DNA from: an uncultured Clostridia bacterium
Lineage (GTDB): Bacteria > Bacillota > Clostridia > TANB77 > CAG-508
Direction of reading: 5' to 3'
Length of the DNA: 64,000 nucleotides
Assembly (NCBI GenBank): GCA_934184665.1
Contig: CAKPSX010000004.1
Span: 728-64,727 of the forward strand
In this document: piece by piece, positions 12,545 to 60,685 of the stretch
Position numbering within the stretch: the stretch's first letter is position 1
Layout of the letters: the number at the start of each line of letters is the position of its first letter
Notes under the pieces: model-generated
The model's database searches: none
Seen by the model: the letters and a program-made list of their open reading frames with translations, nothing else
What the model was told of the DNA's origin: nothing
Position numbers and translations under genes: made by a program

Positions 12545-15500
12545 ATGTTGAAAAAGATGGAGAATCTAACTAGCTCACAAAAATCTATATGGAGCGTAGA
12601 ACAGTATTTCAAAGGAAGCAGTATTAATAATATTTGTGGAACTGCTGTATTCAAAGAAGAAATCGATTTTAAAAAATTAGAAGAAGCAATAGAAATAGTA
12701 TGTAGTAAACATGATATTTTTAAAATCAGATTTAAAATCAAAGATGGAGAAATCATGCAAATGGTTTCAGATTCTAATGAATGTAACATTGAAATAATTG
12801 ATGTTAAAGATGTAGATGAACTTAAGAAGAAAAAAGAAGAGCTTACCCAAAAACCCTTCAAAATAGAAGAAAATTTATTATTCAAATTTTATATCTTTAA
12901 GTTTCCAAATGGTAAAGGGGCATTTATGCCTAGCATGCACCATTTAATTTCAGACGCTTGGACTATAGCACTTATTTATAATGAAATTATCGAAACATAT
13001 TCCATATTAAAACAAAACAAAGAAATTAAGGAGGAGGCTGTATATTCATATACAGACTATATTAAATCTGAACAAGAATACCAAGAAAGTGAAAAATTTA
13101 ATAAAGACAAACAATATTGGAAAGAAAAATTTGTTACAATACCAGATGTTGCAATAATACCAGGTAGTAAAAAGGAAAATGTTGATAGAACTAATCCAAA
13201 AGGAGAAAGAAATCAATATGAGATAGAAAAAGAGAATGTAGAAAAAATAAAGGAATATTGTAAAAAATATAAAATTTCATTATACAATTTCTTTATGGCT
13301 GTTTATGCAATATATATTGGGGAAATAACGAATTTAGATGAATTTGTTATTGGAACACCAATTTTAAATAGAACTAATTTCAAAGAAAAACACACTGCAG
13401 GTATGTTTATAAATATGGCACCATTCAAAATAAATATTGATGAGGAATTAGATTTTAAGGAATTTATAAAAAATATAGCAAGAGATTCACTAGGAATGTT
13501 AAAACATCAAAAATATTCATATCAATATTTATTAGAAGAACTAAGAAAACAAGATAGAAATATTCCAAGCTTGTATAATATTTTGCTGTCATATCAAATA
13601 ACAAATACAAAGCAAAATAATGGAAATGTAGAATATGAAACAGATTGGATATTTAATGGATGTTGTGCAGAAGATATAGATATACAAATATTTGATTTAA
13701 ATGATACAGGTGCGTTAAATATTTCATATGATTACAAAACAAGTATTTATAATCAAAAAGATATAGAAAAAATGCATACCAGAATATTAAATATTATGTT
13801 ACAAGTAATTCAAAAAGATGATATTAAATTAAAAGAAATAGAAGTAATTACGCCACAGGAAAAAGAAAAGGTTTTAGTTGAGTTTAATAAAACAGATTTA
13901 CAATATGATAAAAATAAACCATTTGCAAAATATTTTGAGGAACAAGCTCAAAATACGCCAGATGGAATAGCGATAGTATTTGAAAATAATAAAATCACAT
14001 ATAAGGAATTAAATGAAAAGGCAAATAGTCTAGCACATGTATTAAGAGATAATGGAGTAACAAATAATACTATAATAGGAATATTAGAAAAGCGTTCACC
14101 AGAAGTGCTTATATCAATGCTTGCAGTATTAAAAGCAGGAGGATGCTATATTCCTATAGCTACAGATTATCCAAATGAGAGAATAGAATATATGTTGCGA
14201 GACAGTGATGCAAGTATTTTACTTACAAGTGAAGGAAATAGAATTCATACAAATAAAAAGATTATAAATATAAAGGATGAGAAAATATACCAAGAAAATA
14301 AGGAAAATATAGAAAACATATCTCAACCAGATGATTTATCATATTTTATATATACATCAGGATCAACTGGAACTCCCAAAGGAGTCATGTTAAAACAACG
14401 AAATTTAAGCAATTTTTATAATTCAATGAAAACAATGATAGAATTTTTAAGGGACAGAGAGAACTATAAAATGCTTTCTATTACAACAATATCTTTTGAT
14501 ATATTTGCATTTGAGACACTAATGTCATTAACGAGAGGACTAACTGTATATTTAACAAATGAAAATGAACAAAAAATGACAAGTGAAATAGAAAGAATTA
14601 TAAAAGAAAATAAAATAGAAATTATGCAAACAACACCATCTGTAATGAAATTTCATATAGAAAATATAAAAAATAAAAGCAGTTTAAAAAGTCTGAAATA
14701 TATTATGCTAGCAGGTGAACCATTACCAAAGCAACTTGTAGAAAGAATAAAGGGTATTATTCCAAAAGTAACAATATATAATGGGTATGGACCATCTGAA
14801 ACTACTATATTTTCAGCCATTGCAGATGTTACTAATCAGACAACAATTACTATAGGAAAGCCTATAAATAATACACAAATATATATATTAAATAAAAATA
14901 AAAAATTAATGCCACAAGGAATGATTGGAGAAATTTATATATCTGGAGATGGCGTAGGAAAAGGATATATGAATAAAGAAGAACAGACAAAAGTAAACTT
15001 CATTCAGGATATTTTTGATAGTTCAAAAATAATGTACAAAGTAGGAGATTTAGGTGCATTTAATGAAAATGGAGAAATAACTTGTTGTGGAAGAATTGAT
15101 AATCAAGTAAAAATAAGAGGATTAAGAATTGAACTTGCGGAAATAGAAAGGCAAATGCAATCAATTTATAATATAGCGGATTGTGTTGTTGTAAAAAAAG
15201 TTGTAAATGATAAAGACACATTATGTGCATATTATGTGGAAAACGGACCTGTAAATAAATCTGTTTTACAAACAATATTACATTCAAAATTACCAGAATA
15301 TATGATACCACAATATTTTGTAAAACTTGATAAAATACCACATACACCAAATGGAAAAATTGATAGACTAGAATTACCAGAACCTAACTTGGAAGAAAGT
15401 GAAAACGAGTTTGTAAAACCTAGAAACGAAATAGACAGAAAATTAGCAAGAAGAATTAAAAAGATGTTGCAAATAGACAAAGTTAGCATAAATGATACAT

Positions 15501-18500
15501 TACTTCAACTTGGTGGGGATTCACTTACGGCAATAACTTTATCAACTAAAATAGTCTCAGAATATAATGTGCAAATAAATATAAAAGATATATTATCAAA
15601 CTATACGATAAAAGACATATCAGATTATATTGAGAAAAATAAGTCAAAAGATGTATCAAATGTAAAAATAGAAAAAGCACCAGCACAAGAAACATATCCA
15701 TTATCATCAGCACAAAAAAGAATATATTATAATTCAAAAATGATAGGTGAAAATAATGTCGTTTATAATACACCAGGTGGAATTATAATTGATGAAATTT
15801 TAAATATTAAAAAAATTAAAGAAGTATTTTCTAAAATAACTAAAAGACATGAAATTTTAAGAACAAAACTTGAAGTACAAGATGGAGAAATAGTGCAAAG
15901 GGTATATGATAATATCGAGTTTGACATACCAGTTTACTATAATACACAAGAGGAAATAACAGACATACTTAAAAAATTCACTAAGCCTTTTAGATTAGAA
16001 GATGAAATATTGTTTAGAGTAGAAGTTCATTATATTGATGAAAAAAGTACAATATTATTAGTAGATGCACATCATATGATTATGGATGGAATATCACTAA
16101 ATAACTTGATTATAGAGTTTAATAGATTATATAATGGTTCAGATTTAAAGAATTTACCAATACAATATAAGGATTATTCTGTTTGGGAGAATAAGCATAA
16201 TCAAAGTAAAGAAATATTACCAAGTGAAAATTATTGGGTGAAAAAATTGAAAGATTGTAAATTCACTCCTACAAACTTACCTTATGATTATAAACTTTTA
16301 GCCAATAGAAGCTATAACGGTAACAAGATAATTAATGTTATTGATGAAAAGAAATTTAGAAAAATAGAAAGATATGCAAAAAAGATAGGTGCATCACCAT
16401 ATATGCTATTTGTATCAGCACTTTTGATATTACTATATAAATACACAGGCCAAAATGAGATAATTTTAGGTAGCCCTATAGCAAACAGAAATAGAAATGA
16501 AACTAAAAGAATGATAGGCATGTTTGTAAATAATATTGTAATTAGAGGGAATATAAATGGAAATGAAACATATGAAGAATTTTTAGAGAAGATAAAAGAG
16601 CAATTGCTAAATGATTTATCATATCAACCATATCCTTTTGATATGCTTATAAAAAAATTAGGAGTAAAAACTGATAATTCAAGAAACCCGCTATTTGACG
16701 TGATGTTTACATATCAAAATAAAGAAGAAAATATGGTAAAGTTAAATGGCAAAAATATAAATGTTTTAGAATTATATAATAATATAGCGAAGTTTAATTT
16801 ATCAATTGAGATAAAACCAAAAACACATACTATAAATATAGAATATTGTAGTGATTTATTTAAAAAAGACACAATTATAAATTTCTTTGAACATTATATG
16901 TATGTAATAGAACAGATATTAAATAACAATGAGATTAAGATAGATGATATAAATATAATAACAGAAAAAGAAAATAAGTTGTTGAAAAAATTCAATGAGA
17001 CAGATGGAGAAATAAATAATGATACAACAGCATATTTGATTGAAAAACAGGTTGATGAAAATCCAAATAATATTGCGGTTATATGTGAAGACAAAAAAAT
17101 AACATATAAAGAATTAGACGAAAAGGCAAATAGTTTAGCAAACCATCTTATAGAAAAAGGAATAAAAAGAAATGACATTGTTTGTATAATGACAAATAGG
17201 TCAATAGAAACAATTGTTGCAATGTATGCGATACTTAAAGCTGGTGGGGCATTTTTAAACATAGACCCAACATATCCATTAGACAGAACCAAACATTATA
17301 TTGAAAATAGTAAATCACAATATGTGTTAACACAAAGAGAATTAAAAGATAGAGTTAAAGAGATTCCTAATTGTATAGAAATTGATTTAGATAATGAACT
17401 ATACAATAAAAACTCAAGCAGACCAAATGTAGATATAAAAATGGAAGACTTATCTTATATTATATATACATCAGGTTCAACAGGAATTCCAAAAGGAGTA
17501 ATGTTAAATCAAGTAGGATTAGCAAATATGTCTAAAGCAATGACAAAAGCATTAGATTATTTACATGATGGCAAGATTCATACACTATTATCAGTAACAT
17601 CAACACCATTTGATATATTTGTATATGAAATAATTGTTTCATTAACACATGGACAAAAAATAGTTATGGCAAATAATGCTGAACATAGAAATCCTACATT
17701 ACTTGAAAACCTGATGGAAAAATACAATACAGATGTCATGACAGTAACACCAAGTTTAATGAAAATAATATATGATAATAAAAGAGAAGATTCACCATTG
17801 AAATTAGTGAAAAATATGGTTTTTGGTGGAGAGCCATTACCAGAAAAATTTGTTAAAGATTTAAAAGCACTAGCAGATGATATAACAGTATTTAATATTT
17901 ATGGACCAAGTGAAATAACAATTTTATCAAATGTTCAAAACTTAAATGGAGAAACAGAAATTACAACAGGTCCACCAATAATGAATACACAAATACATAT
18001 ATTAGATAAAAATATGAAAAGAGTTCCAATTGGAGTTGTGGGAGAGATTTATATCTCTGGAATACAAGTTGGAGAAGGATATTTAGGTAATCCAGAATTA
18101 ACTCAAGAGAAATTTTTACCCAATAAATATGGTAAAGGAAAAATGTATAAAACAGGTGATATTGGTAGATGGACATTTGATGGAAAAGTTCAATGCTTAG
18201 GAAGAATTGATAATCAAGTAAAATTAAGAGGTTTAAGAATTGAACTTGGAGAGATTGAAAATAAAATGGAAGAATATCCAGGTGTATCATCAGCCGTTGT
18301 AAATAAAGTTACAATTGATAATAAAGATTCTCTATGTGGGTATTATGTTACAGACGATACGATTGATGTAACAGAAACTGAGATAAAAGCATTTTTGAAA
18401 AAATATTTACCGCAATATATGGTTCCAACTTATATTGTACATTTAAAGAAAATGCCTTATTCAATAAATAGAAAAATAGATAGAAAAGCATTACCGATGC

Positions 18501-20005
18501 CAGAAATCAAAGAAAGAGAATTTAAAGAAGAAAATCCAGATGATTTTGCCACAGATGAATTAAAATTGTTACAAATATGGAAAAATATTTTACACATAAA
18601 TAAAATATCTTTATATGATAATTTCTTTGATATAGGAGGAGATTCAATTTCAGCAATAAAAATGCAAATAGAAGCATTAAAGTATGATTTTGATTTTGAA
18701 TATTCTGATATATTTAAATATCCAACAATAAAAGAATTAGCGAATATGAGAAGTAAACACAAAGAATTAAAAAAAGATATATCAAAATATGACTATACTG
18801 AGATTAATAAAATCTTATCAAAAAATACAATATCAAATATTTCAACAATAAAGAAATATAATGTTAATAATATTCTTTTGATAGGAGGCACAGGATATTT
18901 AGGAGTACATGTATTAGATAAATTTTTAAAAGAAGAAAATGGAAAAATATATTGCTTAATTAGAAGAAAAGATGATGAAGAACCATTAGCTAGATTGAAA
19001 CAAAAAATTGTATTTTATTTTGGAAATGAGTATTATGAGAAATATCAAGATAGAATACAAATAATAGAGGGAGATATTGTTAAGGAAAATCTTGCAATAT
19101 CTGAAAAAGACAAAGATGTACTTAAAAATGAGGTTACAACAGTAGTAAATGCAGGTGCACTAGTAAAACATTTTGGTACAGCAAAATTATTTAATGATAT
19201 AAATGTTTTAGGAACTCAAAATGTTGTTGACTTTTGCAAAACGTTAGGAAAAAGACTAATACATATTTCAACAATAAGTGTATCTGGTAATGGAGAAAAA
19301 GAAGAAACTATAGAAGAAACAAAGGAAAACATAAACAACAAAAAGCTATTTAGAGAAAATACTTTGTATATTGGACAAAACTTAGAGGGAGTATATACAA
19401 CAACAAAATACCAAGCAGAAATAATTGTATTAAAAGCAATTGAGGATGGACTTGATGCACAGATTTTAAGAATGGGCAATATTACAAATAGATATAGTGA
19501 TGGGGTATTTCAACAAAATGTTGAGGAAAATGCATTTGCAAAAAGGTTAAAATCATTTATAGAATTGGGTGTAATTCCTGAATATTTATTACAGCATTCT
19601 GTTGAACTGGGACCTGTAGATTTATGTGCAGAAGCGGTTATCAAAATATTACAATATAATAGTGAATGTAATGTTTTTCATATATATAATCCGAAATTAT
19701 TACCAATAAAATTATTTATTAATACTTTAAATGAGATAGGAATTAATATTAAAGGTATTAATGAAGATGAAATGACAAAAAAATTAATAGAAACTTTAAA
19801 TGATGACTTTAAAAAAGAAATTTTATCTGGTATAATACATGATATTAGTAAAAATAAAAAATTAATATATACATCAAATGTAAAAATCGATTGTGAATTT
19901 ACAGAAAAATATTTAGAAAAAATAGGATTTTTCTGGAAAGATATTGATAAAGAGTATATATTAAAATATATGAACTATTTTAAAAAAATAGGATTTATAC
20001 AATAG
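12545..20005 (+). CDS. Bimodular non-ribosomal peptide synthetase, C-A-T-C-A-T-R (terminal thioester reductase)
   Basis: Approximate domain positions follow. C1 is 12557-13880 (SSQKSIW, MHHLISDAW at 12935). A1 is 13937-15364 (YTSGSTGTPKG, GYGPSETT, YKVGDLG, RIDNQVKIRGLRIE, PNGKIDR). T1 has LGGDSLTAI with Ser at about 15521. C2 is 15677-16985 (DAHHMIMDG at 16064). A2 is 17042-18500 (YTSGSTGIPKG, YGPSEIT, YKTGDIGRW, NRKIDRK). T2 has IGGDSISAI with Ser at about 18644. R is 18872-20002 (IGGTGYLGVHV, YTTTKYQAE). Confidence 0.95.
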   Translation: MLKKMENLTSSQKSIWSVEQYFKGSSINNICGTAVFKEEIDFKKLEEAIEIVCSKHDIFKIRFKIKDGEIMQMVSDSNECNIEIIDVKDVDELKKKKEELTQKPFKIEENLLFKFYIFKFPNGKGAFMPSMHHLISDAWTIALIYNEIIETYSILKQNKEIKEEAVYSYTDYIKSEQEYQESEKFNKDKQYWKEKFVTIPDVAIIPGSKKENVDRTNPKGERNQYEIEKENVEKIKEYCKKYKISLYNFFMAVYAIYIGEITNLDEFVIGTPILNRTNFKEKHTAGMFINMAPFKINIDEELDFKEFIKNIARDSLGMLKHQKYSYQYLLEELRKQDRNIPSLYNILLSYQITNTKQNNGNVEYETDWIFNGCCAEDIDIQIFDLNDTGALNISYDYKTSIYNQKDIEKMHTRILNIMLQVIQKDDIKLKEIEVITPQEKEKVLVEFNKTDLQYDKNKPFAKYFEEQAQNTPDGIAIVFENNKITYKELNEKANSLAHVLRDNGVTNNTIIGILEKRSPEVLISMLAVLKAGGCYIPIATDYPNERIEYMLRDSDASILLTSEGNRIHTNKKIINIKDEKIYQENKENIENISQPDDLSYFIYTSGSTGTPKGVMLKQRNLSNFYNSMKTMIEFLRDRENYKMLSITTISFDIFAFETLMSLTRGLTVYLTNENEQKMTSEIERIIKENKIEIMQTTPSVMKFHIENIKNKSSLKSLKYIMLAGEPLPKQLVERIKGIIPKVTIYNGYGPSETTIFSAIADVTNQTTITIGKPINNTQIYILNKNKKLMPQGMIGEIYISGDGVGKGYMNKEEQTKVNFIQDIFDSSKIMYKVGDLGAFNENGEITCCGRIDNQVKIRGLRIELAEIERQMQSIYNIADCVVVKKVVNDKDTLCAYYVENGPVNKSVLQTILHSKLPEYMIPQYFVKLDKIPHTPNGKIDRLELPEPNLEESENEFVKPRNEIDRKLARRIKKMLQIDKVSINDTLLQLGGDSLTAITLSTKIVSEYNVQINIKDILSNYTIKDISDYIEKNKSKDVSNVKIEKAPAQETYPLSSAQKRIYYNSKMIGENNVVYNTPGGIIIDEILNIKKIKEVFSKITKRHEILRTKLEVQDGEIVQRVYDNIEFDIPVYYNTQEEITDILKKFTKPFRLEDEILFRVEVHYIDEKSTILLVDAHHMIMDGISLNNLIIEFNRLYNGSDLKNLPIQYKDYSVWENKHNQSKEILPSENYWVKKLKDCKFTPTNLPYDYKLLANRSYNGNKIINVIDEKKFRKIERYAKKIGASPYMLFVSALLILLYKYTGQNEIILGSPIANRNRNETKRMIGMFVNNIVIRGNINGNETYEEFLEKIKEQLLNDLSYQPYPFDMLIKKLGVKTDNSRNPLFDVMFTYQNKEENMVKLNGKNINVLELYNNIAKFNLSIEIKPKTHTINIEYCSDLFKKDTIINFFEHYMYVIEQILNNNEIKIDDINIITEKENKLLKKFNETDGEINNDTTAYLIEKQVDENPNNIAVICEDKKITYKELDEKANSLANHLIEKGIKRNDIVCIMTNRSIETIVAMYAILKAGGAFLNIDPTYPLDRTKHYIENSKSQYVLTQRELKDRVKEIPNCIEIDLDNELYNKNSSRPNVDIKMEDLSYIIYTSGSTGIPKGVMLNQVGLANMSKAMTKALDYLHDGKIHTLLSVTSTPFDIFVYEIIVSLTHGQKIVMANNAEHRNPTLLENLMEKYNTDVMTVTPSLMKIIYDNKREDSPLKLVKNMVFGGEPLPEKFVKDLKALADDITVFNIYGPSEITILSNVQNLNGETEITTGPPIMNTQIHILDKNMKRVPIGVVGEIYISGIQVGEGYLGNPELTQEKFLPNKYGKGKMYKTGDIGRWTFDGKVQCLGRIDNQVKLRGLRIELGEIENKMEEYPGVSSAVVNKVTIDNKDSLCGYYVTDDTIDVTETEIKAFLKKYLPQYMVPTYIVHLKKMPYSINRKIDRKALPMPEIKEREFKEENPDDFATDELKLLQIWKNILHINKISLYDNFFDIGGDSISAIKMQIEALKYDFDFEYSDIFKYPTIKELANMRSKHKELKKDISKYDYTEINKILSKNTISNISTIKKYNVNNILLIGGTGYLGVHVLDKFLKEENGKIYCLIRRKDDEEPLARLKQKIVFYFGNEYYEKYQDRIQIIEGDIVKENLAISEKDKDVLKNEVTTVVNAGALVKHFGTAKLFNDINVLGTQNVVDFCKTLGKRLIHISTISVSGNGEKEETIEETKENINNKKLFRENTLYIGQNLEGVYTTTKYQAEIIVLKAIEDGLDAQILRMGNITNRYSDGVFQQNVEENAFAKRLKSFIELGVIPEYLLQHSVELGPVDLCAEAVIKILQYNSECNVFHIYNPKLLPIKLFINTLNEIGINIKGINEDEMTKKLIETLNDDFKKEILSGIIHDISKNKKLIYTSNVKIDCEFTEKYLEKIGFFWKDIDKEYILKYMNYFKKIGFIQ

Positions 20006-24250: not shown

Positions 24251-26401
24251 ATGGAAAAGATAATAAACCAAATAGCTAGTGAGCTAAATGTTAAAAATAC
24301 ACAAGTTGAAAACGCAGTAAAGCTAATAGATGAGGGAAATACAATTCCGTTTATTGCACGTTATAGAAAAGAAGTTACAGGAGGATTAAGTGACGAAATA
24401 TTAAGAACATTAGGAGAAAGATTAACATATCTTAGAAACTTAGAAACAAGAAAAGGAGAAGTAATAAAATCAATAGATGAGCAAGGAAAGCTTACTGATG
24501 AACTAACAGTAGCAATAGCATCAGCTGAAACACTTGCAGAGGTTGAAGATTTATACAGACCTTATAAACAAAAGAAAAAAACAAGAGCAACAGTCGCAAA
24601 AGCAAAAGGATTAGAACCTCTTGCAAATATAATTTTTGAACAAAAAGAGAAAAAAGATATAAATGAAATTGCTTCAGAATTTATTAGTGAGGAAAAAGGT
24701 GTAACTACTGCGGAAGAAGCCATTCAGGGGGCTTTAGATATAATTGCTGAGAATATTTCAGATAATGCACAATATAGAAAATATATTAAAAAAGTATGTT
24801 ATAGAGAAGGCCTTATCTCAACAAAAGCAGCGAAACCAGATGAAAAATCCAACTATGAAATGTATTATGATTTTGAAGAATTAGTTTGCAAACTACCAAG
24901 TCACAGAATATTGGCTATTAATAGAGGAGAAAGTGAAGGAGTTTTAAAAGTTTCAATCACAAAACCAGAAGATAAAATAATTTATTATATGGAAAGAGAT
25001 ATTGTAAAAGAAAAAACTCAATTCACAGAAATGTTGAAAACAACAATATTAGATGCATTTAAGAGACTAATAGAACCATCTATAGATAGAGAAATTCGTT
25101 CTGACTTAACAGAAAAAGCAGAAGAAAAAGCAATAAAAGTATTTGGACAAAATGCAAAACAACTATTACTTGGAGCACCAATTAAAGGAAAAACAGTAAT
25201 GGGATTTGACCCAGCATATAGAACAGGTTGCAAGATTGCTGTAATAGATGAAACAGGTAAAGTTTTAGACACAGCAACAGTATATCCAACAGCACCACAA
25301 AATGATGAAGAAGGCGCCAAAAAGGTCTTATTAAATTTAATTGAAAAAGACCATATAGATATGATTGCAATAGGAAATGGTACAGCATCACGTGAATCAG
25401 AAAAGTTTGTTTCTGATATGATAAAAGAAGTAAATCATGATATTTGTTATGTAATAGTCAGTGAAGCAGGAGCATCCGTATATTCAGCATCAAAATTAGC
25501 AACAGAAGAATATCCAGATATAAATGTATCAATAAGAGGAGCAATTTCAATTGCCCGTAGATTACAAGATCCACTTGCTGAACTTGTGAAAATTGACCCA
25601 AAGGCAATTGGAGTAGGTCAATACCAACATGATGTTAATCAAAAAAAACTTTCAGAAAGTTTAACAGGTGTTGTAGAAGATAGTGTTAATAAAGTTGGTG
25701 TTGATGTAAACACAGCAACTCCTTCATTACTTTCTTATGTATCAGGCATTAACAATACAATTGCAAAAAATATTGTAAGATATAGAGATGAAAATGGAAA
25801 ATTAAAAGAAAGAAAAGAGCTTCTAAAAGTTCCAAAGCTTGGAAAAGTTGCATATGAACAATGCGCAGGATTTATAAGAATTCCAGATGGAACAAACCCA
25901 TTAGAAAATACAGCAGTTCATCCAGAGAGCTATGAACAAACTGAAAAATTATTATCCAAAATAGGCTTTACTAAAGCAGATTTAAAAGATAAAGAAAAAT
26001 TAAATGAGCTAAGAGAAAAACTAAAAACTATTGATATATCTTTAATATCAAAAGAACTTGATATTGGAGAAATGACACTTACTGATATCATTTCAGAGTT
26101 GTCAAAACCAGGACGTGACCCTAGAGATGATATGCCAAAACCAATTTTACGTAATGATGTCTTGAAATTCGAAGATTTAACAGAAGGTATGGTTCTTACA
26201 GGAACAGTACGTAATGTTATAGACTTTGGGGCATTTGTAGATATTGGAGTAAAATATGATGGACTTGTTCACATATCAGAAATGAGTAACTCATATATAA
26301 AATCTCCATCTGACTTTGTTTCAGTTGGTGATATTGTAAAAGTTAAAGTAATAAAAATAGACCTTGAACGTAAAAAAGTAGGCTTATCTATGAAAATATA
26401 A
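24251..26401 (+). CDS. tex: Tex-like transcription accessory protein (YqgF/HhH/S1 domains)
   Basis: N-terminal IPFIARYRKE, a central YqgF-like region (GFDPAYRTGCK), and a C-terminal S1 domain (GTVRNVIDFGAFVDIG). Confidence 0.9.
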   Translation: MEKIINQIASELNVKNTQVENAVKLIDEGNTIPFIARYRKEVTGGLSDEILRTLGERLTYLRNLETRKGEVIKSIDEQGKLTDELTVAIASAETLAEVEDLYRPYKQKKKTRATVAKAKGLEPLANIIFEQKEKKDINEIASEFISEEKGVTTAEEAIQGALDIIAENISDNAQYRKYIKKVCYREGLISTKAAKPDEKSNYEMYYDFEELVCKLPSHRILAINRGESEGVLKVSITKPEDKIIYYMERDIVKEKTQFTEMLKTTILDAFKRLIEPSIDREIRSDLTEKAEEKAIKVFGQNAKQLLLGAPIKGKTVMGFDPAYRTGCKIAVIDETGKVLDTATVYPTAPQNDEEGAKKVLLNLIEKDHIDMIAIGNGTASRESEKFVSDMIKEVNHDICYVIVSEAGASVYSASKLATEEYPDINVSIRGAISIARRLQDPLAELVKIDPKAIGVGQYQHDVNQKKLSESLTGVVEDSVNKVGVDVNTATPSLLSYVSGINNTIAKNIVRYRDENGKLKERKELLKVPKLGKVAYEQCAGFIRIPDGTNPLENTAVHPESYEQTEKLLSKIGFTKADLKDKEKLNELREKLKTIDISLISKELDIGEMTLTDIISELSKPGRDPRDDMPKPILRNDVLKFEDLTEGMVLTGTVRNVIDFGAFVDIGVKYDGLVHISEMSNSYIKSPSDFVSVGDIVKVKVIKIDLERKKVGLSMKI

Positions 26402-26443
26402 ATGGAAAAAATAACAAAAAAGCTTTTAAATTATGTAAATCTG

Positions 26444-26452
26444 TGATATAAT
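26444..26452 (+). promoter_or_regulatory. Extended -10 element (TGaTATAAT) upstream of the 337-aa orphan gene
   Basis: TGATATAAT. The -35 region is poor (TTTTAA). It overlaps the left arm of a 39-bp palindrome. Confidence 0.4.
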
Positions 26453-26562
26453 AAACAAGATGGCGACATTTGTCGTATCTTGTTTATTGTGATTTGGTAC
26501 ACAAAATCATATTAAACAATTAGCAATTCCCCAAATTTAATTAAAAGAAAGGAAGAAACAAA

Positions 26563-27576
26563 ATGAGTAAGAAACAACGGGAGAAGAAGTACAACACACT
26601 AATGTTGAGAACCTTGGCAGAGGAACTTAACAAGATTCGTCGCCCTATCGGGGAGGATAAAGCCCTGGTACCGATCAAAGTGGAGGACATTTATCTTCTT
26701 GAAAAGGCAATCTATATGATGCCCAAAAAGGAGCGAGAAGCACTGGAAAAAATGTACGGACTCATCGAGGGAACTATTCCCAAGGGAAAGTTATGGAGAA
26801 AGGGGCACAACAATGAAAAAGACATTGCCCTGAGAAATCAGGCAGTCAAGACATATGATGCAATGAGAAGTCTCTTGAGCTTAGACATGCTCTATGTCTA
26901 TGACAAGTGCTTCCAAGCACTGGTTGCAAGCATTGTGACCAAAATGGACAAGCCAGATAACATGTCTGACATGGAGGCCATAAAGTACCTCTTGTTGTTC
27001 TTCGTTTTCATGATGGGAGGTCCCAACATGATTTATGAGGAAGAGGCTCGTTCTACTGGTTGGAATGAGGAGAACATCGGCAACTACGACCTGTATACAC
27101 TGCTTCAGGCTACATGGGAGAGCTCAATTAGCTTGATGCCTGAGAAGAACATCAACATGAACCTCTTAAAAGAGGTAATCGGGATGTTTGACATCTCTGA
27201 TATCGTTTCTATGAAGCGATATGTTGGCTTACCTATTGGCAAGCAGAATATCAGTGTATCATGGATTGAGCTGCAAACATTTGCACAGATTCGAAAGTTC
27301 AAGGAAAAACTCTTCTCTCAGGGAGAGTGGGTGACAACTGAAAAGTTGATCTACACTCAACGCACTACTAAGATGAACCTTACACCATTCTCTGATGCGA
27401 TGAAGTATCTGAGAAACAGTGATACTGAAAAGTATCGAGAGGAAGAAAGAACTACGGAGATCGAACTGACTACCGGCAAAAAAGAGCTGGTATTCTATAA
27501 AATCGGTGCCTTGAAGTTCACTGACCCATATGAAATGCTTTCTCTGTACCTTTGCAGAAGAGCACTGAAAGCCTAA
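26563..27576 (+). CDS. Hypothetical protein, 337 aa, compositionally foreign
   Basis: Long ORF with an AAAGGAAG RBS. GC is about 40-50% per line against about 25% in neighbouring genes. Codon preference is AAG/GAG/CTG/ATC/TTC/AAC. The only weak similarity I see is a sigma-70 region-4/YlxM-like stretch, MPKKEREALEKMYGL...RNQAVKTYDAMRSL. Confidence 0.6.
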   Translation: MSKKQREKKYNTLMLRTLAEELNKIRRPIGEDKALVPIKVEDIYLLEKAIYMMPKKEREALEKMYGLIEGTIPKGKLWRKGHNNEKDIALRNQAVKTYDAMRSLLSLDMLYVYDKCFQALVASIVTKMDKPDNMSDMEAIKYLLLFFVFMMGGPNMIYEEEARSTGWNEENIGNYDLYTLLQATWESSISLMPEKNINMNLLKEVIGMFDISDIVSMKRYVGLPIGKQNISVSWIELQTFAQIRKFKEKLFSQGEWVTTEKLIYTQRTTKMNLTPFSDAMKYLRNSDTEKYREEERTTEIELTTGKKELVFYKIGALKFTDPYEMLSLYLCRRALKA

Positions 27577-27584
27577 CTCATTTA

Positions 27585-27613
27585 CCCCAGCAAGTAATTC
27601 TTGCTGGGGTTTT
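27585..27613 (+). terminator. GC-rich Rho-independent terminator
   Basis: ccccagcaag-taatt-cttgctgggg followed by tttt. Confidence 0.8.
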
Positions 27614-27758
27614 CAAAATATTCATATGCTGACTTTTTAAAAATGAAAAAATATCAAAAACTTTAACAATTTATTTTTTTGTGTTATAATACAAATGATT
27701 AAAAAACAAAAAAATGTAAACACTAAGAAAAAAGATTGTGAAAGGAATGTGATTTAAG

Positions 27759-42161: not shown

Positions 42162-42422
42162 TGTCAAAAGCCGAAGAGAAAGCAAAGTAAATATATCACA
42201 AAAGTATTACAGAGAAGATGACAAAGCTGAGAGTCATTTATACAAGATATATTGAAATTTCACTTTAGAGGTCTTACTTTGAATAATAGTAGAAGTAAGC
42301 GGTTGAACCGTTAAAACTATAATGAGGTTAATAAAATGCTTGGAAAAAGCATAATTAATAAAATTAGGTGGTACCACGAAAGAGCCATTCGTCCTAAGTG
42401 CAGGATGATTGGCTCTTTTTAC
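42162..42422 (+). promoter_or_regulatory. T-box leader (Phe specifier) controlling pheS-pheT
   Basis: AGAGA/GCTGAGAG stem-I elements. Candidate specifier UUC-A at about 42259. Conserved T-box AAATTAGGTGGTACCACG at 42361. Terminator aagagcca...tggctcttttt at 42380-42420. Confidence 0.85.
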
Positions 42423-42446: not shown

Positions 42447-43496
42447 ATGCAAGAAAAGATTGAAGAAATCAAAAAAAGTGCAGAAGAAAGAATACAAGAA
42501 ATAAAAAATTCACAAGAATTACAAGAACTTAAAGTAAAATTCTTAGGCAAAAAAAGTGAATTATCAGGTTTACTAAAAGGATTAGGAAATTTGACAGCTG
42601 AAGAAAGACCAAAAGTAGGAGCATTAGTAAATAAAGCTAGAACAGAAATTGAAGAAAAAATAGCAATTGCAGAAGAGGCAATAAGAGAAAATATGTTAGC
42701 AGAACAAATAGAAAATGAAACAATAGATATAACATTACCAGGAACTAAAATAAAAAGAGGAAGCAAACACCCAGTAAACAGAGTAATTGAAGAAATTGAA
42801 GATTTATTTGTATCAATGGGATATGATGTAGTTGCAGGTCCAGAGTTAGAAACAGACGAATTCTGCTTTGAAAGATTAAACCTTCCAAAAGGCCATCCAG
42901 CAAGAGATATGCAAGATAGTTTTTATATAACAAAAGAACATTTACTAAGAACGCAAACATCAGCAGTTCAAGCAAGAACAATGCTAGCAAACACAGAAAA
43001 AACACCAATAAGAATGATATGTGCAGGAAAAACATATAGAAGAGAAGATGATGCAACACATTCACATCAATTTGGTCAAGTAGAGGGGCTAGTAATAGAT
43101 AAAAAAGAAAGAAATGTATCATTAGCAGATTTAAAAGGCACACTTGAAATATTTGTGAAAAAACTAACAGGAAAAAATAGTGAATTAAGATTTAGACCAA
43201 GTTACTTCCCATTTACAGAACCATCATATGAAGTTGATGTTAGTTGTTTTAAATGCGGTGGAAAAGGCTGTAACCTTTGTAAACAAACAGGCTGGATAGA
43301 AATACTAGGAGCAGGAATTGTGCATCCACATGTATTAGAAATGAATGGATATAATCCAGAAGAATATGGAGGCTTTGCATTTGGAACAGGACTAGAAAGA
43401 TTAGCAATGTTTAAATATGCAATACCAGATATGAGATATTTGTATGCAAATGATATTAGATTTTTAACACAATTCGATAGAAAAGATGAAGAATAA
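42447..43496 (+). CDS. pheS: Phenylalanine--tRNA ligase alpha subunit
   Basis: [23 protein letters not shown] and GAGIVHP motifs. Confidence 0.95.
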
Positions 43497-45988: not shown

Positions 45989-46336
45989 ATGGAAAAGAAA
46001 GTAGAAATAAGCATGTTATGGCAAATCTACGGAAAAATGCTTACAGAAAAACAAAGCGAATATATCGATTACTACTACAACAAAGACTTATCTTTATCAG
46101 AAATTGCAGAAAACAATGAGATAACAAGACAAGCCGTGAGAGATATCATCAAAAAGGGGGAAAGAAAACTTTTCGAGTTTGAAGAAAAGCTATTGTTTAT
46201 GAAAAAGACAATTAATCAAGAAAAACAAATCCAACATATACTTTTCAATTTAAATAAAATACAAAAAGACTCGTCAGACAAAAAAGTTGAAAGCATATTA
46301 GAAGAAGTGAGAAAAGAATTAAATTGTTTAGTATAA
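45989..46336 (+). CDS. ylxM: YlxM/p13-like putative HTH protein (UPF0122)
   Basis: LTEKQSEYIDYYYNKDLSLSEIAENNEITRQAVRDIIKK. It occupies the conserved position upstream of ffh. Confidence 0.8.
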   Translation: MEKKVEISMLWQIYGKMLTEKQSEYIDYYYNKDLSLSEIAENNEITRQAVRDIIKKGERKLFEFEEKLLFMKKTINQEKQIQHILFNLNKIQKDSSDKKVESILEEVRKELNCLV

Positions 46337-46356: not shown

Positions 46357-47718
46357 ATGGCATTTGAGGGACTATCATCAAGACTACAAGAAATAACAAG
46401 AAAATTTAGAGGAAAAGCAAGAATCACTGAGAGTGACTTGAAAGAAATGCTTAGAGAAGTAAAACTTGCTTTACTAGAAGCGGATGTAAACTATAAAATA
46501 GTAAAAGAATTTATAGCAAACATACAAGAAAAAGCATTAGGCCAAGATGTAATGAAATCATTAACACCAGGTCAACAAGTTATAAAAATAGTAAAAGATG
46601 AATTAATAGAATTACTTGGAGGAACTGAAAGTAAAGTTAATTTTACACCAAACCCACCAACAGTAATAATGTTAGTAGGACTTCAAGGGTCAGGTAAAAC
46701 AACAACAGCAGGAAAGTTAGCTAATCTTTTTAGAAAGCAAGGCAAAAAGCCACTATTAGTTGCATGTGATGTATATAGACCAGCAGCGATTAAACAATTG
46801 CAAGTAATAGGAGCACAGCTAAATATACCAGTATATAGTAATGAAACATCAAAAGATGTAGTACAAATAGCAAACCAAGCTATGAATGTTGCAATATCTA
46901 AATTAAATGATGTAGTAATACTTGATACAGCAGGTAGATTGCACATAGATGATGAATTAATGCAAGAGCTAAAAAATGTAAAGGCAAATATTAAACCACA
47001 TGAAATCTTATTAGTAGTAGACTCAATGACAGGTCAAGATGCTGTAAATATAGCACAAAGCTTTAATGAGGCAGTTGGCATAGATGGAGTAGTATTAACA
47101 AAACTAGATGGAGATACACGTGGTGGTGCAGCACTTTCAGTAAAGAAAGTTACAGGTAAGCCGATTAAATTTGCGGCAACTGGTGAAAAATTAAGTGATA
47201 TTGAAGTATTTAATCCTGAGAGAATGACATCAAGAATACTTGGCATGGGTGATGTGTTATCAATAATCGAAAAAGCAGAAGAAACAATGTCTTTAGAAGA
47301 GGCAGAAAAAATCGAGAAACAATTAAAGAAAAAAGAATTGGATTTAGACGATTATTTAACACAGATTAGACAAGTAAAAAAGATGGGTTCATTTTCATCA
47401 ATATTAAAATTGATACCAGGAATGAATAATAAAATAAAAGACATAGATGTGAATGACAAAGAATTTGACAAAATTGAAGCAATAATATGCTCAATGACAA
47501 AACAAGAAAAAAGAAATGTGAAATTACTTAATGCAAGTAGAAGACAAAGAATTGCAAAAGGTAGTGGAACAACAGTGCAAGATATCAATAAATTCATAAA
47601 ATCATTTGAAATGACTCAAAAAATGGTTAAACAAATGAAGTCAACAAAAGGTGGAATGAAGAAAATGTTAAAGAACTTTAATATGGATATTGATATAGAT
47701 GACTTGCAAGATTCTTAA
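46357..47718 (+). CDS. ffh: Signal recognition particle protein Ffh
   Basis: GAGAGGAG RBS precedes the ATG at 46357. GLQGSGKTTTAGKL, DTAGR and TKLDGDTRGGAALS motifs, plus a Met-rich M domain. Confidence 0.95.
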   Translation: MAFEGLSSRLQEITRKFRGKARITESDLKEMLREVKLALLEADVNYKIVKEFIANIQEKALGQDVMKSLTPGQQVIKIVKDELIELLGGTESKVNFTPNPPTVIMLVGLQGSGKTTTAGKLANLFRKQGKKPLLVACDVYRPAAIKQLQVIGAQLNIPVYSNETSKDVVQIANQAMNVAISKLNDVVILDTAGRLHIDDELMQELKNVKANIKPHEILLVVDSMTGQDAVNIAQSFNEAVGIDGVVLTKLDGDTRGGAALSVKKVTGKPIKFAATGEKLSDIEVFNPERMTSRILGMGDVLSIIEKAEETMSLEEAEKIEKQLKKKELDLDDYLTQIRQVKKMGSFSSILKLIPGMNNKIKDIDVNDKEFDKIEAIICSMTKQEKRNVKLLNASRRQRIAKGSGTTVQDINKFIKSFEMTQKMVKQMKSTKGGMKKMLKNFNMDIDIDDLQDS

Positions 47719-60203: not shown

Positions 60204-60239
60204 AAAAAATAAAACCCACCCAGTAAAAAACTGGGTGGG
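60204..60239 (-). terminator. GC-rich Rho-independent terminator oriented for the minus-strand orphan gene
   Basis: The minus strand reads cccacccag-ttttttа-ctgggtggg followed by ttttatttttt, i.e. stem 60215-60223 / 60231-60239. The plus strand has no T-run after the stem. Confidence 0.75.
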
Positions 60240-60248
60240 AGAAAGGAC

Positions 60249-60572
60249 TCATCTGATGATGAGGAATGGATCCCTAGCAGGAACCTTATGCACGACTCTC
60301 ATACCTTTTGTAAAGGTAGATTTAGTGAACCGTACTGTACCGTCCTTTGTGAGGACGATTTCCTGTTCACCAACTTCAGGGAATGCATGATGCTTCATTC
60401 TGAAGCTTCTGAAGCTTTGGCTGAACTGATGGATAACACAGCAGCCGAGTTGGAGGTATCTCTCCTCGATGAAGTCAGTGAAACTTTTCAACTCCTGAGA
60501 GGTGAAGCGCCTTCTGGGCCACAGGTACTGGCAGAACAATTCTGCTACTTCGTTGTTGAAACGTAATGCCAT
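60249..60572 (-). CDS. Hypothetical protein, 107 aa, compositionally foreign
   Basis: GC is about 40-50% per line against about 25% in the flanks, with a C/G-ending codon preference (TTC, AAC, CTG, CTC, ATC). It has an RBS (AAAGGA), its own promoter and its own terminator on the minus strand. I recognise no family. Confidence 0.55.
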   Translation of the reverse strand: MALRFNNEVAELFCQYLWPRRRFTSQELKSFTDFIEERYLQLGCCVIHQFSQSFRSFRMKHHAFPEVGEQEIVLTKDGTVRFTKSTFTKGMRVVHKVPARDPFLIIR

Positions 60573-60656
60573 AAGGTGTACATCCTTTCTGTTTTTTCTT
60601 CAATATTATTGAAGAAATTGTAATAATATGTTATGCACAAAGCATACCATACAATT

Positions 60657-60685
60657 ATTATACAATAATTGACATAAATAGTCAA
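60657..60685 (-). promoter_or_regulatory. Consensus-like promoter of the 107-aa orphan gene
   Basis: On the minus strand: TTGACT, a 17-nt spacer, then TATAAT. Confidence 0.55.

Follow-up and report, generated by a model that had tools for sequence, protein, structure and literature searches.

In the hok and aapA1 mRNAs, a long-distance interaction joining the 5' end to the 3' end sequesters the Shine-Dalgarno (SD) sequence, giving a stable but poorly translated full-length message, and messages of this type are activated by 3' processing (PMC5416894). Here we describe a gene of quite different size whose transcript is predicted to close on itself in a comparable way. The gene, called X, is an open reading frame (ORF) encoding 337 amino acids (aa) at positions 26563-27576 of the forward strand in a 64,000-nt stretch (the window; mean G+C 28.4%) of contig CAKPSX010000004.1 from an uncultured Clostridia bacterium, where it lies between tex and pflB. 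Our interpretation, held with moderate confidence and built on folding models, is that X is a native gene whose synonymous sites are kept at about 50% G+C for the sake of a compact, self-closing, probably latent and long-lived mRNA. The translational latency, the stability of the message, and the notion that these account for the high G+C at third codon positions (GC3) we infer from the analysis given below. A literature search for such a phenomenon in Clostridia returned nothing specific. In what follows, W is the window copy of X and L001 to L031 are related contigs; all of them were retrieved through X itself, and the tex-pflB comparison covers X-bearing loci.

The initial annotation of this stretch had called X compositionally foreign, with codon choices flipped relative to those of its neighbours, and the anomaly as such was confirmed by sliding 500-nt G+C, by GC3 and by codon counts. 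Windows of 500 nt across positions 26501-27500 had a G+C of 0.41-0.42, the highest in the window, against 0.21-0.35 nearly everywhere else. The G+C of X is 0.428 and its GC3 is 0.541, compared with a GC3 of 0.07-0.20 for the other plausible genes of the window. The share of ATA among isoleucine codons drops from 62% in the host to 4% in X, TTA among leucine codons drops from 61% to 11% while CTG rises from 1% to 32%, and the share of AAG rises from 13% to 64%. Third positions of X are near-uniform (A.23, C.24, G.30, T.23), whereas those of the host are strongly skewed (A.54, C.05, G.085, T.32). The description as foreign has to be corrected in one respect, namely that the G+C at first and second codon positions (GC1 0.435, GC2 0.308) and the amino-acid composition of X are host-like, so that the deviation is limited to synonymous sites. 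Furthermore, the shift is confined to the coding sequence (CDS) and breaks exactly at the start and stop codons, and the intergenic parts of the unit are AT-rich and highly conserved.

High GC3 appears to be a maintained trait of the family. All 12 members for which DNA is at hand have a GC3 of 0.30-0.59, compared with 0.10-0.20 for the genes in their flanks, and all 95 family representatives show the amino-acid make-up of AT-rich genomes (GARP/FYMINK ratio about 0.5), so that no G+C-rich reservoir is visible. Lineage-specific synonymous third-position changes, counted in three sub-lineages related to the window copy, numbered 45 from AT to GC and 41 from GC to AT, whereas the rates per site in host genes (tex, pflB, pflA and that of the response regulator) predict an AT-to-GC share of 0.18 (about 18:82; binomial p = 3e-13). 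This balance indicates that the GC3 of X is stationary and is not decaying toward host composition. The synonymous divergence (dS) of X from the sister species is near saturation. A raw excess of dS was seen by the Nei-Gojobori method (NG86), which gave 1.44 for X and 0.4-1.2 for the neighbours; we discounted it because the extreme AT bias compresses host dS, and same-codon fractions give comparable divergence. The GC-richest homolog is that of L031 (GC3 0.59), and in this contig (positions 3905-4912) the genes for a HAD hydrolase and a flavodoxin just 5' of X have a GC3 of about 0.30, against 0.14-0.19 in the rest of the contig.

The X message is also predicted to fold more stably than its codons require. 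Local folding energies in 120-nt windows were compared with those of shuffled sequences that preserve the protein, the codon usage and all dinucleotides. The z-score of the local minimum free energy (MFE) was -4.5 for W, -5.8 for L005, -7.4 for L014, -6.9 for L011, -4.8 for L024 and -3.3 for L030, and lay between -2.9 and +0.6 in the six remaining members; 20 host genes gave a mean of -1.43 and a minimum of -2.35. The family mean of -3.6 differs from the host genes (Mann-Whitney p = 0.004), and in the high-GC3 clade the real sequences exceed their shuffles in stability by 5-6 kcal/mol per 120 nt. The sense strand was always more extreme than the antisense strand, as is expected under selection at the RNA level. 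Comparison of X with Rfam 15 yielded nothing at the gathering threshold, only chance-level matches (E 0.12-0.69).

A further predicted structure joins the two ends of the message. When whole X transcripts of about 1100 nt from 11 homologs were folded, the MFE structure of every one paired the start-codon region with the 7-10 nt tail following the stop codon (P 0.41-0.86), and an independent tool applied to the 1160-nt transcript of the window recovered this closing helix in the MFE as well as in the centroid structure. The same pairing measure was 0-0.03 in 14 host genes, and shuffling of the tail (n = 24) lowered P from 0.70 to a mean of about 0.07-0.08, with one outlier at 0.41. The helix covaries, being AAAUGAG:CUCAUUU in W and L011 and AAAUGGG:CCCAUUU in L030, L031 and L021/L029; the next-but-one pair, where U-A is replaced by A-U, brings the covarying pairs to two altogether. 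Pairing in excess of what codons and dinucleotides demand, taken together with the helix between start and tail, makes a folding demand the most likely reason for the high GC3 of X.

The initial annotation had pointed to a second gene with the same composition and layout as X. This proved correct: the gene, which lies on the reverse strand and encodes 107 aa, has a GC3 of 0.546 and its own promoter, 5' hairpin and terminator (Table 1). Its 3' tail, which is all pyrimidine, is predicted to pair with the SD of the same message, and P for the AGAAAGGA:TCCTTTCT pairing was 1.00 in the window and 0.90 in L019. The low ratio of nonsynonymous (dN) to synonymous divergence from L019 (dN 0.048, dS 0.48, dN/dS 0.10) indicates purifying selection. 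One homologous cluster was found for the protein, and searches against Pfam, PHROGs, PADLOC and NCBIfam gave nothing above threshold. The CDS differs by 10.8% from that of the near-identical strain L019, the adjoining gene by 0.7% and the promoter region by 2.5%; at 23 sites G/C in the window is A/T in L019, and the reverse holds at 11. The proposal that the two genes are linked stands only as far as the layout is concerned, to which a 3' tail complementary to the gene's own translation start can now be added; evidence of a common donor or function was not seen. No homolog of the 107-aa gene was found near other X loci, it has no sequence motif in common with the X promoter, and the promoter box of X does not occur a second time in the window, leaving a regulon common to both genes without evidence.

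The promoter, SD and terminator of X form a self-contained cassette, as had been proposed from its host-like, AT-rich promoter and ribosome-binding site; the promoter scan and the conservation of the module agree with this view. A block of about 35 nt, AAAAA-CTTTTA-N2-TTATGTAAA-N4-TGnTATAAT, lies upstream of X in nine lineages (W, L005, L014, L011, L013, L021, L025, L029 and L030) whose X proteins are merely 31-40% identical, and is kept also where X occupies different genomic contexts; it was not found in L023 or L031. In L011, L013 and L025, a second block (ATTATATAT.yAAA...AAAAAATCAA) is located about 70-110 nt 5' of the X promoter, common to these three distant homologs and missing from the window clade. 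An SD resembling GAAAGGAAG stands 7-9 nt 5' of the start codon in nearly all homologs. The G+C-rich hairpin terminator predicted at the end of X was borne out by a perfect stem in the window, and all 12 homologs examined carry a terminator hairpin of 11-14 bp (-20 to -27 kcal/mol) 8-13 nt past the stop codon. At the other end, the promoter sits between the tex stop codon and an apparent tex-terminator hairpin. Because the -10 element overlaps the 5' arm of this hairpin, tex transcripts would hold the whole hairpin and X transcripts would start inside it. It folds with an energy of -15.4 kcal/mol in W, while L005 and L014 give -20.6 and -17.8, respectively; the three differ by one compensatory change (A-T to G-C). 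The hairpin probably serves both as the tex terminator and as the 5'-proximal hairpin of the X transcript. The only minus-strand promoter-like sites, at 26476-26448 and 27742-27713, are weak (9/12 matches), and conservation of the latter is precluded in L005 and L020 by the convergent gene that comes after X.

These features can be combined in a model. Selection would keep the synonymous sites of X at about 50% G+C so that the message folds compactly. Once transcription is finished, the message would close, the 7-10 nt beyond the stop codon pairing with the start-codon region over about 1 kb. In the closed message initiation would be hindered, few single-stranded AU-rich targets for RNases would be exposed, and hairpins would cap both ends, the outcome being a long-lived, poorly translated (latent) mRNA. 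Opening might come about through 3' processing, through the action of a helicase, or when a ribosome terminates beside the start codon. The 107-aa gene would follow the same design, with the 3' tail masking the SD rather than the start codon. More tentatively, X and the 107-aa gene may exemplify a class of bacterial "latent message" cassettes for full-size proteins that has so far gone undescribed, and we would speculate that such a class is marked by recoding of the whole CDS against the AT bias and by a start locked by post-stop sequence.

Several observations weigh against the proposed role of folding. The evidence for structure is thermodynamic prediction throughout. The folding excess is weak or absent in low-GC3 members (z of +0.6 in L013 and -1.5 in L031 and L023). 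The closing helix is short and amounts to just 5-6 bp in L014, L020 and L024, and duplex energies alone are marginally better than those of shuffles (p = 0.003-0.1). RNAalifold applied to six X sequences gave 40 double-change pairs, compared with 22 in shuffles and 6-11 in slid controls; this test is circular, so that the 40 covarying pairs are partly an optimisation artefact, and a non-circular permutation test showed a weak excess of retained internal pairs between clades. A conserved internal RNA fold across the X clades was dropped after the latter result, and what we claim for the X CDS, on the strength of the models, is generic structuredness and a terminal closing helix, not a conserved internal fold. 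For the 107-aa gene the tail-shuffle control is uninformative, since any pyrimidine-rich tail pairs with a purine-rich SD. Nor is inheritance simply vertical: the X of L025 is 34-36% identical to W and closer to those of L013 and L024 (45%), although the tex and pflB genes at this locus are 89% and 92.5% identical to those of the window, which argues that allele replacement or very uneven rates occurred. Finally, rare-codon selection could be primary and the structure a by-product of the higher G+C.

This last alternative supposes that ATA and TTA, the commonest codons of the host, and A-ending codons in general are avoided, that translation of X hinges on minor tRNAs or wobble modification, and that the added RNA structure merely accompanies the higher G+C. 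We consider it unlikely, while granting it real weight. ATA and TTA are avoided in every X homolog, including those of lowest GC3 (in L029, ATA makes up 0% and ATT 88% of isoleucine codons), and codon gating agrees with the limitation of the shift to the CDS and with the stationary GC3. However, the 5-6 kcal/mol per 120 nt lost in shuffles that keep codons and dinucleotides shows that codon choice alone does not explain the arrangement of the sequence, and the conserved helix between start and tail is not predicted by it. The host tRNA picture is limited to the three tRNA genes of the window.

The locus could instead be a recombination hot spot, where alleles are frequently exchanged and GC-biased gene conversion or local mutation raises GC3. 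We regard this explanation as rather improbable. Divergence of X in close pairs is indeed 3-5 times that of the flanks (1.5% vs about 0.3%; 2.7% vs 0.5-1.2%), the 107-aa gene differs by 10.8% where its surroundings differ by 0.7-5%, and L025 has a tex 89% identical to that of the window yet an X of 34-36% identity that groups with other sub-lineages. Against this, the change in composition ends exactly at the start and stop codons and leaves the intergenic parts AT-rich and highly conserved, the synonymous divergence between W and L005, once corrected for composition, puts X inside the span covered by the neighbouring genes, and neither the strand-specific folding excess nor the closing helix would be explained. 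Known effects of GC-biased gene conversion in bacteria amount to a few percent of GC3, not to a rise from 13% to 54%. Divergence between L005 and L020 is uneven along the locus, being 6% for pflA (L005 13618-14346), 25% for the histidine kinase gene (L005 1389-3371) and 0.5-1.2% for most others, a pattern that points to mosaic recombination in the region.

Recent horizontal acquisition, as proposed in the initial annotation, would make X and the small gene un-ameliorated cargo from a donor of moderate G+C. The extreme and sharp-edged GC3 contrast is what such an origin would leave, family members occur in at least five different genomic contexts, L025 has an integrase gene beside an inverted tex, and the excess divergence of X over its flanks (3-5 times) and of the small gene over its neighbour (10.8% vs 0.7%) could be read in the same way. 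The position of X argues otherwise. Six related lineages carry it at the tex/pflB locus, their X proteins sharing 34-80% identity, with a recurrent order NRPS (non-ribosomal peptide synthetase) - histidine kinase - cmk - response regulator/HD - tex - X - pflB - pflA. This order was seen in the near-identical contigs L001-L004 and L022, in the sister species (L005-L010 and the Hadza metagenome-assembled genome L020; X 77% and tex 94% identical) and in L014 (X 80% identical to the window copy), and X adjoins tex or pflB in L011 (61% identical), L013 (40%) and L025 (34%). More distant members occur as lexA or DUF308 - X - spoIVA ... nusA-infB, tyrS - Smr - X - sigma factor, dxs ... X ... HD, and flavodoxin - X - rplM/rpsI. 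Every member with DNA lies in an AT-rich context, GC1, GC2 and the amino-acid composition of the whole family are host-like, the AT-rich promoter is conserved along with X, and the 45:41 balance of synonymous changes lacks the GC-to-AT excess expected under amelioration. No integrase, transposase or convincing flanking repeat was found around X, where repeat matches were low-complexity A-rich only, and the nearest of the three tRNA genes of the window are 10.7 kb and 35.2 kb away, in agreement with the initial annotation, which had seen none of these elements. A scan and tblastn of phage genomes, plasmids and viral contigs revealed no homolog of X or of the 107-aa gene. Recent acquisition is thus largely refuted by synteny, host-like GC1/GC2 and stationary GC3, and we now rate it as improbable. 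The best reading of the locus is that X is native to a clade of AT-rich, spore-forming gut Clostridia, has long resided there as a protein-coding gene, and is inherited, and now and then relocated, as a complete promoter-to-terminator unit.

Two rearrangements at the locus were observed. In L025, from a congeneric genome (4806-7772, to be compared with window positions 24251-26401), tex is inverted and flanked by a phage-integrase-family gene, which lies 2.4 kb upstream and is the only integrase seen; X and pflB are set apart by three additional genes, among them one that has a type IV pilin N-methylation motif, and the X allele falls into another sub-lineage of the family. A second case is the sister species, in which a convergent gene encoding 688-699 aa separates X from pflB (L005 9063-11129 and L020 11063-13162, both on the minus strand); it has a normal AT-rich composition, and its product shows only a weak stretch resembling the C-terminal domain of the RNA polymerase alpha subunit.

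The remaining alternative is that the locus is artefactual or engineered, whether as a synthetic cassette with optimised codons, as a chimeric assembly, or as a structured noncoding RNA miscalled as an ORF; the initial annotation had raised the engineered cassette. The layout of host-like promoter and ribosome-binding site, recoded CDS and strong terminator does resemble an expression cassette, but this alternative is refuted by natural diversity to the point of being negligible: variants occur in many independent metagenomic assemblies (ENA, Logan, NCBI and JGI) with contigs continuous through the flanks, dS reaches 1.4 with a dN/dS of 0.10, Rfam gave no match, and the protein fold is confidently predicted.

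The product of X is not an orphan, as had been supposed. By an exhaustive profile search, its family comprises at least 95 clusters (at 50% identity), most of them of 330-340 aa, where a word-indexed search found only six close clusters and a metagenome scan one further close copy. The dN/dS of 0.10 between the window copy and its orthologs in L005 and L020 indicates purifying selection. That the protein belongs to no known family was upheld: X matched no Pfam, PHROG, PADLOC or NCBIfam family above threshold, which covers anti-phage defence profiles and phage protein families; 62 family members had no match in Pfam, and a sequence profile search of the PDB returned coiled-coil noise only. AlphaFold2 with a 62-sequence alignment gave a helical body and a C-terminal beta-sheet (pLDDT 91.6, pTM 0.90; a 7-sequence alignment had given a pLDDT of 45), and Foldseek searches of this model, one of the checks that had been suggested, found nothing with E < 0.1 in the PDB or BFVD. 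As modelled, the 337-aa product is soluble and of the alpha/beta type, and its fold resembles no solved or viral-predicted structure. The hydrophobic segment marked in the initial annotation is a confidently modelled helix within the globular fold. The stretch likened there to sigma-70 region 4 or YlxM comes down to a motif of about 20 residues (LE.AI..LP.KERE.LE), and Pfam, hhalign and Foldseek gave no helix-turn-helix domain. Alignment by hhalign with a genuine sigma factor covered 20 columns at a probability of 0.5%, and we rejected the relationship; local Foldseek matches in the PDB spanned 60-78 residues with E > 6, and a few family members had sub-threshold NCBIfam matches to SigK or SigE.

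Table 1. Features of gene X and of the second GC-rich cassette (window coordinates)
Feature	Position	Strand	Description
Gene X promoter	26425-26452	+	Promoter scan, 10/12 matches with TG; AT-rich, extended -10
Weak -35 element	26425-26430	+	TTTAAA
Spacer box	26431-26439	+	TTATGTAAA
TG-extended -10 element	26444-26452	+	TGATATAAT
Stem-loop and T-rich run	26450-26488	+	Inverted repeat I9, 12 nt, 100% complementary; overlaps end of -10
Shine-Dalgarno sequence of X	26547-26555	+	GAAAGGAAG; read directly
Predicted closing helix, 5' arm	26561-26568	+	AAATGAGT; contains start codon; inverted repeat I15; ensemble probability 0.70
Gene X CDS	26563-27576	+	337 aa; GC-enriched synonymous sites, excess predicted mRNA structure
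Predicted closing helix, 3' arm	27576-27583	+	ACTCATTT; from last stop-codon base, abuts terminator; pairs with 26561-26568
Intrinsic terminator of X	27584-27614	+	Inverted repeat I12; G+C-rich 11-bp perfect stem (arms 27584-27594 / 27600-27610), 5-nt loop, TTTT
Second cassette promoter	60657-60685	-	TTGACT 60685-60680, 17-nt spacer, TG-TATAAT 60664-60657; near-identical in L019
Shine-Dalgarno sequence of 107-aa gene	60583-60590	-	AGAAAGGA; 5' arm of predicted closing helix, pairs with 60247-60240
Second CDS	60249-60572	-	107 aa; GC3 0.546; no known family
3' tail and terminator hairpin	60215-60247	-	TCCTTTCT 60247-60240 (anti-Shine-Dalgarno), then hairpin CCCACCCAG...CTGGGTGGG 60239-60215

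Other features of the window were also noted. The NRPS gene upstream of tex (12545-20005, plus strand) encodes a 2486-aa two-module enzyme with a terminal reductase domain and is kept in related contigs. A T-box leader (Rfam RF00230, 111 bits) is present at 42165-42399 on the plus strand, upstream of the gene at 42447-43496. A small YlxM-like gene (45989-46336, plus strand) has a moderately raised GC3 of 0.31 and a very low GC2 of 0.17; downstream of it is an ORF of 453 aa (46357-47718), probably ffh.

Atypical G+C is routinely read as horizontal transfer, and the X family, with a GC3 of 30-59% among genes of 10-20%, is a clean counter-example. Should RNA folding prove to be the cause, synonymous recoding of an entire gene to shape its mRNA would occur in bacteria beyond RNA viruses and tiny toxin genes, and such genes could be recognized by a genomic signature that combines outlying GC3 with a strong terminator and a 3' tail able to pair with the start region. 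If our model is correct, fold-back inhibition of the hok type would not be confined to tiny toxin peptides but would reach proteins of 100-340 aa; these could act as toxic or emergency effectors, for example during abortive infection, under stress or when spores germinate, produced only upon opening of the RNA, and the juxtaposition of stop and start codons could let terminating ribosomes re-initiate. The protein family itself combines a confidently predicted fold, without solved or viral-predicted relative, with restriction to poorly studied spore-forming gut Clostridia.

Comparison with other described systems places X apart from each of them in some respect. Like morons and single-gene islands, X is a stand-alone unit of promoter, gene and terminator with atypical composition and unrelated neighbours. 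Unlike morons, which are prophage-borne and of foreign origin, it lies among core genes in conserved synteny, with host-like GC1 and GC2, and is not ameliorating; mobility genes, a tRNA target and flanking repeats were not seen at X in the window, nor was a donor-like composition at all codon positions with amelioration. Like the bldA-dependent TTA genes of Streptomyces and codon-biased stress regulons, X appears to be a resident gene whose codon usage is kept mismatched by selection. Unlike those genes, whose control depends on a single rare codon or a handful of them, X is shifted in all synonymous families and shows excess pairing. In single-stranded RNA phages and viruses (MS2, Min Jou; genome-scale ordered RNA structure, GORS), synonymous sites are shaped for pervasive structure and long-range helices gate the start codon, whereas X is encoded in chromosomal DNA, is equipped with a sigma-A-type promoter and an intrinsic terminator, and lacks a replicase.

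The hok and aapA1 mRNAs are 250-400 nt long, encode hydrophobic peptides of < 60 aa and are accompanied by an antisense small RNA. X, by contrast, is a 1.16-kb message for a soluble, globular protein of 337 aa, its predicted helix spans about 1 kb and its whole CDS is recoded; the second gene encodes 107 aa. No antisense RNA is evident for X, and because its 3' arm lies inward of the terminator hairpin, simple 3' trimming would leave the closing helix in place. Given its large soluble product, X is not a member of the type I toxin-antitoxin systems. The resemblance lies in the RNA: as in hok/Sok of plasmid R1 and aapA1/IsoA1 of Helicobacter pylori, the 5' initiation region of X is predicted to pair with the 3' end, the modelled RNA is compact, with a high degree of pairing and a terminal hairpin, and 5'-3' closure masking the translation start is seen in silico for both X and the 107-aa gene.

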